61,526 nt of DNA. Source: Escherichia phage PhiR5_2. The position numbers were made by a program, and so were the translations under genes. Positions 9,031 through 9,792 of this stretch are shown here, one piece after another (the stretch's first letter is position 1; each line of letters starts with the position of its first letter). The stretch lies in the sequence record PV340546; one strand, given 5' to 3'. The notes under the pieces are model-generated. The model did no database searches. It was not told where the DNA came from and was given only the letters and a program-made list of their open reading frames with translations.

Positions 9031-9792
9031 TTAGGAATCAAGGTCAGGTAGCATGATTTTCTCAATCAACGTCAATGCCCTTTGGTCTCGTTCAGCAAAA
9101 TATTTAGGAGCGTACTGAGGCAGCCACACTTCGTTGAAGTGTTGTTTGAAATCTGCAAGATATTCGTTTGGGTATAGACGTACCGGGAATGTCCGGCCAT
9201 CTGGGTACTCATGGTTATATGTTGGGAATGTCTTCGGCTCAACCCCCCGGTTGTCACGGAGCCATTGCGAGAAAACCCTACCCTCTGAAATATCAGGGAC
9301 CATTTTTTCTGGCAGCGTATATCCGGCCTGTTCAAGTGGCGCAACCAAGTTAAACGTCAGTTCATTAAGCATAGAAAAGTGCGTATGAGGAACTCTGCCT
9401 CGGTTTGTCATATACCGCTTAAGGTGGATAGGGAGTTCGGCAGGCGCTCTTTCACCTGACATCCACTCACGCACCCATCTCGATACTTGCACTGCAAATT
9501 TTGGAGATAGCCACTGAGCTAAATTAATTGCGATGTCTGGATGAACCCAAGTCCCTTGATTCTCTGCTCTTCCGCCTTTAAATGATTGAATTAACTCCGA
9601 TATGGGAATCCCCATATCGCGTGATAATTCATCAAAAAAATCTTGTGTTGTTTTTAGTCGTGTATAGTCAGCAAGTAGCTTCCCCGCAGACTTGCACATC
9701 GCGGTGGCATTGATGTATCCGTCTTTGGTGCGAAGATGGATGACTTCTCCATCAACTTCTCTAGCGATTAATGCAAGTTGAAACTGTGTCAT
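9031..9792 (-). CDS. KilA-N domain protein occupying the rexAB position
   Basis: 253 aa; N-terminal ...YINATAMCKSAGK...GTWVHPDIAINLAQWLSPKFAVQV resembles the KilA-N/APSES pattern; 31 bp downstream of cI on the same strand. Confidence 0.7.
   Translation of the reverse strand: MTQFQLALIAREVDGEVIHLRTKDGYINATAMCKSAGKLLADYTRLKTTQDFFDELSRDMGIPISELIQSFKGGRAENQGTWVHPDIAINLAQWLSPKFAVQVSRWVREWMSGERAPAELPIHLKRYMTNRGRVPHTHFSMLNELTFNLVAPLEQAGYTLPEKMVPDISEGRVFSQWLRDNRGVEPKTFPTYNHEYPDGRTFPVRLYPNEYLADFKQHFNEVWLPQYAPKYFAERDQRALTLIEKIMLPDLDS

Follow-up and report, generated by a model that had tools for sequence, protein, structure and literature searches.

The genome of Escherichia phage PhiR5_2 (record PV340546) carries a single gene between its lambda-type repressor gene, cI, and the timm terminator. 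We consider this gene, called bstA-like below, to encode a BstA-family abortive-infection defense that would operate as a single protein, and we assign this reading a probability of about 65%. On this view, a lambda-immunity prophage would carry the gene as a moron in its cI-pL slot, co-transcribed with cI and ending at timm. It encodes a protein of two domains, takes the exact place of rexAB, is separated from cI by no terminator, and is followed by a terminator of the timm type. We infer a defense function for its clade (the window clade) from sequence relationships with BstA proteins. The find is real and biologically sensible, and it represents a family and a genomic position that have already been described rather than a new kind of system. 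Throughout, "the window" denotes the whole 61,526-nucleotide stretch of PhiR5_2 DNA that was analyzed, and all coordinates are positions within it.

The best-characterized members of the family are those tested by Owen et al. (2021, PMC8585504), namely BstA of BTP1 and homologs from E. coli NCTC10963 and K. pneumoniae. [quoted passage not shown] The protein co-localizes with the DNA of infecting phages, blocks its replication, and acts via abortive infection (PMC8585504). The phage that encodes BstA is spared because the protein is neutralized by a cognate DNA element called aba. The BTP1 version is 63 bp long and consists of 29 bp upstream of the gene and the first 34 bp of the gene itself, with CCCGCC at both ends. 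This element was defined functionally and is homolog-specific (PMC8585504).

The features of the locus in the window are collected in Table 1. An initial annotation, made by a model from the letters alone, had described a single 253-aa gene located 31 bp after cI, and the open reading frame and spacer that we mapped agree with this description. The RefSeq entry for the protein is named only "KilA-N domain-containing protein," and identical copies of the gene are annotated in E. coli ML35 and E. coli G1/2. A terminator scan of the region from cI to the bstA-like gene found no terminator-like site, and therefore read-through from the cI transcript is expected. The repressor is identical to lambda cI at 234 of 237 positions (99%), and the oL1-3 operators are identical to those of lambda in pairwise alignment. 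Because these operators and pL lie downstream of the terminator, the bstA-like gene falls outside the pL operon. The oR/pRM-pR region is the presumed source of lysogenic transcription of both cI and the bstA-like gene, with pRM assigned by analogy to lambda. The terminator that follows the gene has a stem-loop at 9022-9005 on the minus strand (CCCGGC-CACAGA-GCCGGG, followed by TTTTCTTT in the terminator scan) with a folding energy of -12 kcal/mol (z = -2.1).

Table 1. Features of the bstA-like locus and its flanks in the window
Feature	Coordinates	Strand	Basis or remarks
oL1-oL3 operators and pL, downstream of the terminator	8782..8850	-	pL-like site 8810-8782 (-)
Intrinsic terminator, lambda timm homolog, left boundary of the replaced segment	8997..9022	-	Terminator scan, RNA fold, lambda alignment
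bstA-like gene	9031..9792	-	253-aa ORF, ATG start; RefSeq WP_000191544.1
BstA-like C-terminal domain (Pfam PF26567 type), residues ~120-247	9052..9435	-	
KilA-N (APSES-type) DNA-binding domain, N-terminal, residues 13-112	9457..9756	-	Pfam PF04383
Candidate positional equivalent of BTP1 aba	9759..9821	-	Position only, after PMC8585504 (29 bp upstream plus first 34 bp of the coding sequence)
cI-to-bstA spacer, 31 bp	9793..9823	-	Shine-Dalgarno AGGA at 9799-9802, 6 nt before ATG
cI repressor, lambda immunity, presumed co-transcribed upstream gene	9824..10537	-	Pfam HTH_3 and Peptidase_S24
oR / pRM-pR control region	10538..10637	.	pR-like site 10585-10613 (+); inside blocks ~95% identical to lambda

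Both flanks of the gene were aligned pairwise with lambda (NC_001416). On the left flank, identity with lambda runs from oL/pL through the timm hairpin and ends just past the stem, at ~9022. The stem itself is identical to that of lambda and the loop differs at two positions, and thus the element that the initial annotation had called timm-like is an actual homolog of lambda timm. On the right flank, identity resumes exactly at the stop codon of cI (9824). From these alignments we conclude that the 800 bp at 9023-9822 fill exactly the interval that rexB-rexA take up in lambda (positions 35825-37114), which confirms the earlier proposal that the gene occupies the rexAB slot. RexA and RexB homologs are absent downstream of cI, where this segment is present instead, and the 253-aa protein has no Rex-type match in Pfam, PADLOC, or PHROGs.

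The cI-pL slot corresponds to the mosaic hotspot that Degnan et al. (2007) described, according to PMC8585504, and the position common to bstA and rexAB was already discussed by Owen et al. (2021, PMC8585504). The initial annotation missed this published synteny, as well as the fact that the family already had a name. In the same slot, wild lambda-immunity phages carry rexAB, hicAB, or other small genes, and no entry in the phage record collection has a bstA-like gene between cI and timm. The bstA-like gene and rexAB share the interval from the cI stop codon to timm, the same repressor and operators, presumed expression from pRM in the lysogen, and a proposed role in abortive infection or exclusion. 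However, the products have no sequence relationship. RexAB comprises a sensor (RexA) and a membrane protein (RexB), whereas the bstA-like gene is predicted to yield one soluble protein of a DNA-binding type. The mechanisms likewise differ, since BstA blocks phage DNA replication and RexAB acts by membrane depolarization. If our assignment is correct, the window adds to the classical lambda immunity region a clean, base-pair-resolved exchange of one abortive-infection system (RexAB) for another (BstA-type).

The assignment itself comes from the protein sequence. The N-terminal region, previously proposed to be KilA-N-like, matches the canonical Pfam KilA-N domain (PF04383) at residues 13-112 with an E value of 8.2e-27 and a score of 93.6 bits versus a cutoff of 23.8, which is far beyond chance. 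The peptide quoted in the initial annotation (HTHFSMLNELTFNLVAPLEQAGYTLPEKMVPDISEGRVFSQWLRDN) is present in the translation. The C-terminal domain had been called unrecognized, and this part of the description does not hold. The PADLOC BstA model (PDLC02356) matches residues 120-237 with an E value of 2.5e-20, with only 42% of the length of the model matched. PHROG 6287, which is named "BstA abortive infection system, replication inhibitor," aligns with residues 1-252 over profile positions 6-301 of 304 (E = 1.8e-82). In a BLASTP comparison with BTP1 BstA, the aligned region spans residues 133-251 and is 29% identical (E = 5e-15), and an hhalign comparison of the window clade with the BTP1 BstA clade gives a probability of 97.8% over the C-terminal domain. 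In the BLASTP, hhalign, and PADLOC comparisons, the C-terminal half alone is aligned.

Precomputed domain labels point in the same direction. Relatives of the window protein in a large protein database are labeled with both PF26567 and PF04383, and proteins of the BTP1 type are labeled with PF26567 alone and carry the UniRef name "BstA-like C-terminal domain." The C-terminal half had no match in our copies of Pfam and NCBIfam, the former being a copy without PF26567. In a joint alignment of both clades, 14 C-terminal residues are invariant (R126, N130, P135, F139, E144, D167, S169, G171, W177, H194, Y207, P208, F215, and Y231). On the basis of these profile and alignment matches, we assign the tail of the protein as a BstA-like C-terminal domain. 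It thus belongs to a defense family rather than to one with a structural or replication function, and homology to BstA, a proven prophage abortive-infection protein, supports the earlier suggestion that the gene is a candidate superinfection-exclusion or abortive-infection effector. An AlphaFold2 model of the full-length protein has a pLDDT of 92, and the model of residues 115-253 has a pLDDT of 92.6 and a pTM of 0.84. The fold of the C-terminal domain gave no clue to mechanism.

In its organization, the locus resembles that of BTP1 bstA. Both are single genes located directly 3' of a cI-type repressor gene, on the same strand, and each has its own intrinsic terminator. Both proteins join a KilA-N or KilA-N-like head to homologous C-terminal domains (PF26567; 29% identity), and both fall within PHROG family 6287. 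However, BTP1 BstA has 307 residues and the protein in the window has 253 (54 fewer), and the overall identity between them is ~24%. The tested proteins BstA-Ec and BstA-Kp are 42-48% identical to BTP1 BstA (PMC8585504), and from these published identities we place them within the BTP1 clade. The window protein, at 18-24% identity to BstA proteins of the BTP1 type, therefore lies outside the tested group.

The main difference between the clades concerns the head. The N-terminus of BTP1 BstA was called KilA-N-like by HHpred only (PMC8585504) and has no Pfam match in that region, whereas the head of the window protein is a canonical Pfam KilA-N domain. When the N-terminal domains of the two clades were compared by hhalign, the probability was 1%, and they could not be aligned. 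The head of the window protein thus appears to be a KilA-N domain that is either different from that of BTP1 BstA or very diverged from it. The preprint version of PMC8585504 noted a small group of homologs matching the C-terminal region only, which is what the window clade looks like. Our literature search found no paper testing the clade with the canonical KilA-N head. Database matches number 2748 for the window clade versus 883 for the tested clade, counts from word-indexed searches that are not strictly comparable.

At least 80% of the segment 8900-9900 is present in 22 of 5,426 complete E. coli genomes, and the segment is 100% identical in four of them (ML35, G1/2, G6/7, and G8). Two E. 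coli strains, H6 and DY612, have the same cassette behind other repressors, and the H6 copy of the gene is split into two open reading frames. In these two strains the cassette includes ~26-58 bp of upstream sequence that contains a remnant of the 3' end of cI. Proteus phage vB_BPM-V3 carries an 80%-identical gene after cI, and thus three other types of repressor precede the cassette in H6, DY612, and this phage. In E. coli STEC383 and phage vB_EcoS-673R7, copies with ~86% protein identity occupy the nin region and are encoded on the opposite strand.

We also searched near the start of the gene for a self-immunity element comparable to aba. No 6-mers are shared across the start codon of the bstA-like gene, whereas this test, when applied to BTP1, picks up its CCCGCC repeat. 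The only features near the start are a GAGAAGT repeat (two copies at 9743-9761) and weak inverted repeats. Short repeats in this region occur at chance level, with a 9-nt inverted repeat carrying one mismatch expected ~2.4 times. When the comparison was extended to 78 loci, 34 had shared 6-mers across the start codon versus 34% in internal controls, a result that is not convincing. Synonymous-site entropy in 82 sequences was flat, with sites saturated along the gene, and revealed no protected island; the coding sequences across the clade showed no conserved nucleotide element. Alignments of the upstream regions show conservation among near-identical cassettes only, and it is the ~26-58 bp 5' of the ATG that travel with the gene between prophages. 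A cognate aba may nevertheless be present, since such an element need not be conserved between homologs.

If the bstA-like protein works as BstA does (PMC8585504), its action might proceed as follows. In the lysogen, the gene would be transcribed together with cI from pRM, as the arrangement in lambda suggests, and the protein would be constitutively present. Upon infection by a heterologous phage, it would go to the replicating phage DNA, with the KilA-N domain as the likely DNA-binding part, and the conserved C-terminal domain would then block replication of this DNA. The infected cell would presumably die without releasing progeny, which would protect the lysogen population. The lytic growth of the prophage itself might be spared by a cognate, cis-acting DNA equivalent of aba located around the 5' end of the gene. 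Besides the family matches and the published experiments on BstA, this reading is favored by a genomic layout that matches that of BstA (after the repressor, same strand, own terminator), by the replacement of a known abortive-infection system, by the occurrence of the cassette behind three other types of repressor, and by the lack of a recurrent partner gene. Weighing against it are the distance from the three tested proteins, the N-terminal domains of the two clades, which are not detectably alike, the lack of a BTP1-type repeat at the start codon or of a conserved nucleotide element in the coding sequence, and a C-terminal fold that gives no hint of mechanism. The opposite-strand copies in the nin regions of vB_EcoS-673R7 and STEC383 also count against it, as does the scarcity of S24 repressors next to more distant relatives, as described below.

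These relatives were collected in a locus search that used one genome per species and a single-clade alignment as the query. Relatives are encoded in 365 stretches, and the best 80 of these are 53-60% identical to the E. coli copy and span more than 10 phyla. Included among the best 80 are representatives of Verrucomicrobiota, Bacteroidota, Planctomycetaceae, Spirochaetia, Nitrospirota, and Armatimonadota, along with two genomes of the candidate phyla radiation (Gracilibacteria and Peribacteria). Within this set, just 2 of 73 loci have an S24 repressor as the upstream neighbor. Transposases lie upstream in ~12 of the 73 (IS1595 in 6, IS1 in 4, and an rve-type integrase in 2), and AceK does so in 8 loci, which are from Stenotrophomonas. 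Immediately upstream of the gene there is an AbiTii protein in one locus and a protein with a restriction-enzyme domain in another. No partner gene recurs, either upstream or downstream, in the best 80 of the 365 loci. Given this lack of a recurrent partner and the wide spread of the family, we conclude that the gene acts alone and moves widely. The repressor-linked layout is a local trait, seen in the enterobacterial copies.

It is possible, although we consider it somewhat unlikely, that the clade with the canonical KilA-N head is a functionally distinct sister of BstA in which a shared C-terminal effector is coupled to a different DNA-sensing head. Such a clade could respond to another trigger or another set of phages because its sensing head is different. 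Moreover, the presence of relatives at 53-60% identity in more than 10 phyla would then indicate a very broadly mobile single-gene defense. Self-immunity could have been solved differently in these proteins, or perhaps is not needed at all. Two observations leave room for this reading: the clade has no aba repeats of the BTP1 type, and most relatives reside outside repressor loci and often beside transposases. A related practical point is that the clade may go uncalled in defense surveys, given the partial coverage of the PADLOC BstA model.

Another explanation, which we regard as improbable, is that the protein performs some other service for mobile elements, such as acting as a DNA-binding factor that promotes the persistence of transposons, islands, or prophages, or that it is a host-directed conversion or virulence factor. 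The slot after cI would then be one of many landing sites. The distribution across more than 10 phyla is consistent with this explanation, and so is the finding that an upstream transposase is more common than an upstream repressor. Likewise, earlier work cited in PMC8585504 connected BTP1 bstA phenotypically with the virulence of Salmonella. However, defense genes, too, typically spread widely by horizontal transfer and associate with mobile elements, and the AbiTii and restriction-enzyme neighbors noted above, although found in one locus each, argue against this explanation. Furthermore, abortive infection is the only function of the shared domain that has been tested (PMC8585504).

We find it still less plausible that the protein is a regulator or antirepressor of the KilA-N type (P1 Ant/KilA, Bro, or Rha class) that serves in the gene control of the prophage itself. 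Its N-terminal domain does match PHROG 129, a "transcriptional regulator" family, with an E value of 8e-24. In Foldseek searches, this domain matched the DNA-binding domains of Mbp1 and PCG2 with probabilities of 0.99-1.00 and viral KilA-N proteins with E values down to 1.5e-9, such that every structural match is a DNA-binding protein of the KilA-N/APSES group. In addition, the nin region, which houses the gene in related phages, commonly contains antirepressor-type genes. However, the best match to the whole protein is the BstA family, and the C-terminal half is of the BstA type rather than KilA-C or ANT, with nothing else found there by Pfam. An antirepressor that is co-transcribed with cI would also oppose lysogeny. 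The same distinction separates the protein from characterized KilA-N/APSES proteins such as P1 KilA, poxvirus N1R/p28, and fungal Mbp1. These share the N-terminal fold and sequence family, but they carry KilA-C, RING, or ankyrin regions at the C-terminus, whereas here the head is fused to the BstA C-terminal domain. We know of no protein of the P1 KilA, N1R/p28, or Mbp1 types that serves as an abortive-infection effector.

Finally, there is very little chance that the gene is a passenger without current function (a decaying or silent moron), as might be suggested by the split copy in E. coli H6 and by the many frameshifted structural genes in related E. coli G1/2 prophages, because the open reading frame is intact in the window and identical in at least four genomes, its ribosome-binding site and terminator are intact, and conservation in the family is strong, as 53 positions do not vary across 37 sequences that are 55-86% identical.

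Under the favored reading, that of a BstA-family defense, a tail that had been called unrecognized corresponds to a known defense domain, and the position of the gene fits the known habit of BstA. There is also a possible gap in current annotation, since RefSeq names only the KilA-N portion and the PADLOC BstA model is matched over less than half of its length. The lambda background offers an experimental opportunity, as lambda genetics applied to the window clade could tell whether the C-terminal domain alone defines defense. The same approach could tell how self-immunity works in proteins whose genes lack BTP1-type aba repeats.

Several other observations were made in the remainder of the window. 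In the pL operon, an N-type antiterminator open reading frame (8150-8533, minus strand) is intact and encodes 127 aa with a match to Pfam N_peptide (E = 2e-15). For this reading frame, the annotations of E. coli ML35 and G1/2 show no more than a partial pseudogene of 69 nt named "regulator," which is probably an annotation artifact. Abutting the N gene is an open reading frame for a 238-aa protein (7433-8149, minus strand) that matches PHROG 2539, a family of unknown function (E = 8.5e-130). A zinc-ribbon segment of this protein has weak matches to the endonuclease VII, HNH, and Lar-like families.

On the other side of cI, a 60-nt direct repeat (11344-11402 and 11434-11493) encodes "QQPQQPEADWVNP" along with an EQEQEQ run. 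The repeat lies just before and inside the start of a replication-initiator-like gene (open reading frames 11288-11506 and 11527-12609, plus strand). Its copy number differs from that in E. coli G1/2, whose annotation marks the gene as frameshifted. The repeat may represent origin iterons or a slippage-prone tract.

The nin region (14632-17224), for which gene names were taken from the near-identical G1/2 annotation, encodes a DUF4145 protein (14632-15378, minus strand) and an ORF6N-domain protein (16550-17224, plus strand). Between them, the gene for an HTH antitoxin (15605-15913, minus strand) overlaps that for a RelE/ParE-type toxin (15903-16364, minus strand). These genes are possible further defense or addiction cargo. 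Part of the ORF6N region recurs as an inverted repeat at 59908-60216. Over its full length, the window is related in mosaic fashion to the prophages of ML35 and G1/2 and matches neither exactly; its identity to G1/2 is 99.6% over positions 1-11402 and patchy beyond. The structural module, which includes an N4-gp56 capsid and an LPD38 protein, belongs to the short-tailed Stx-phage type. The ML35 prophage lies between sapC and sapB and thereby splits the sap operon.
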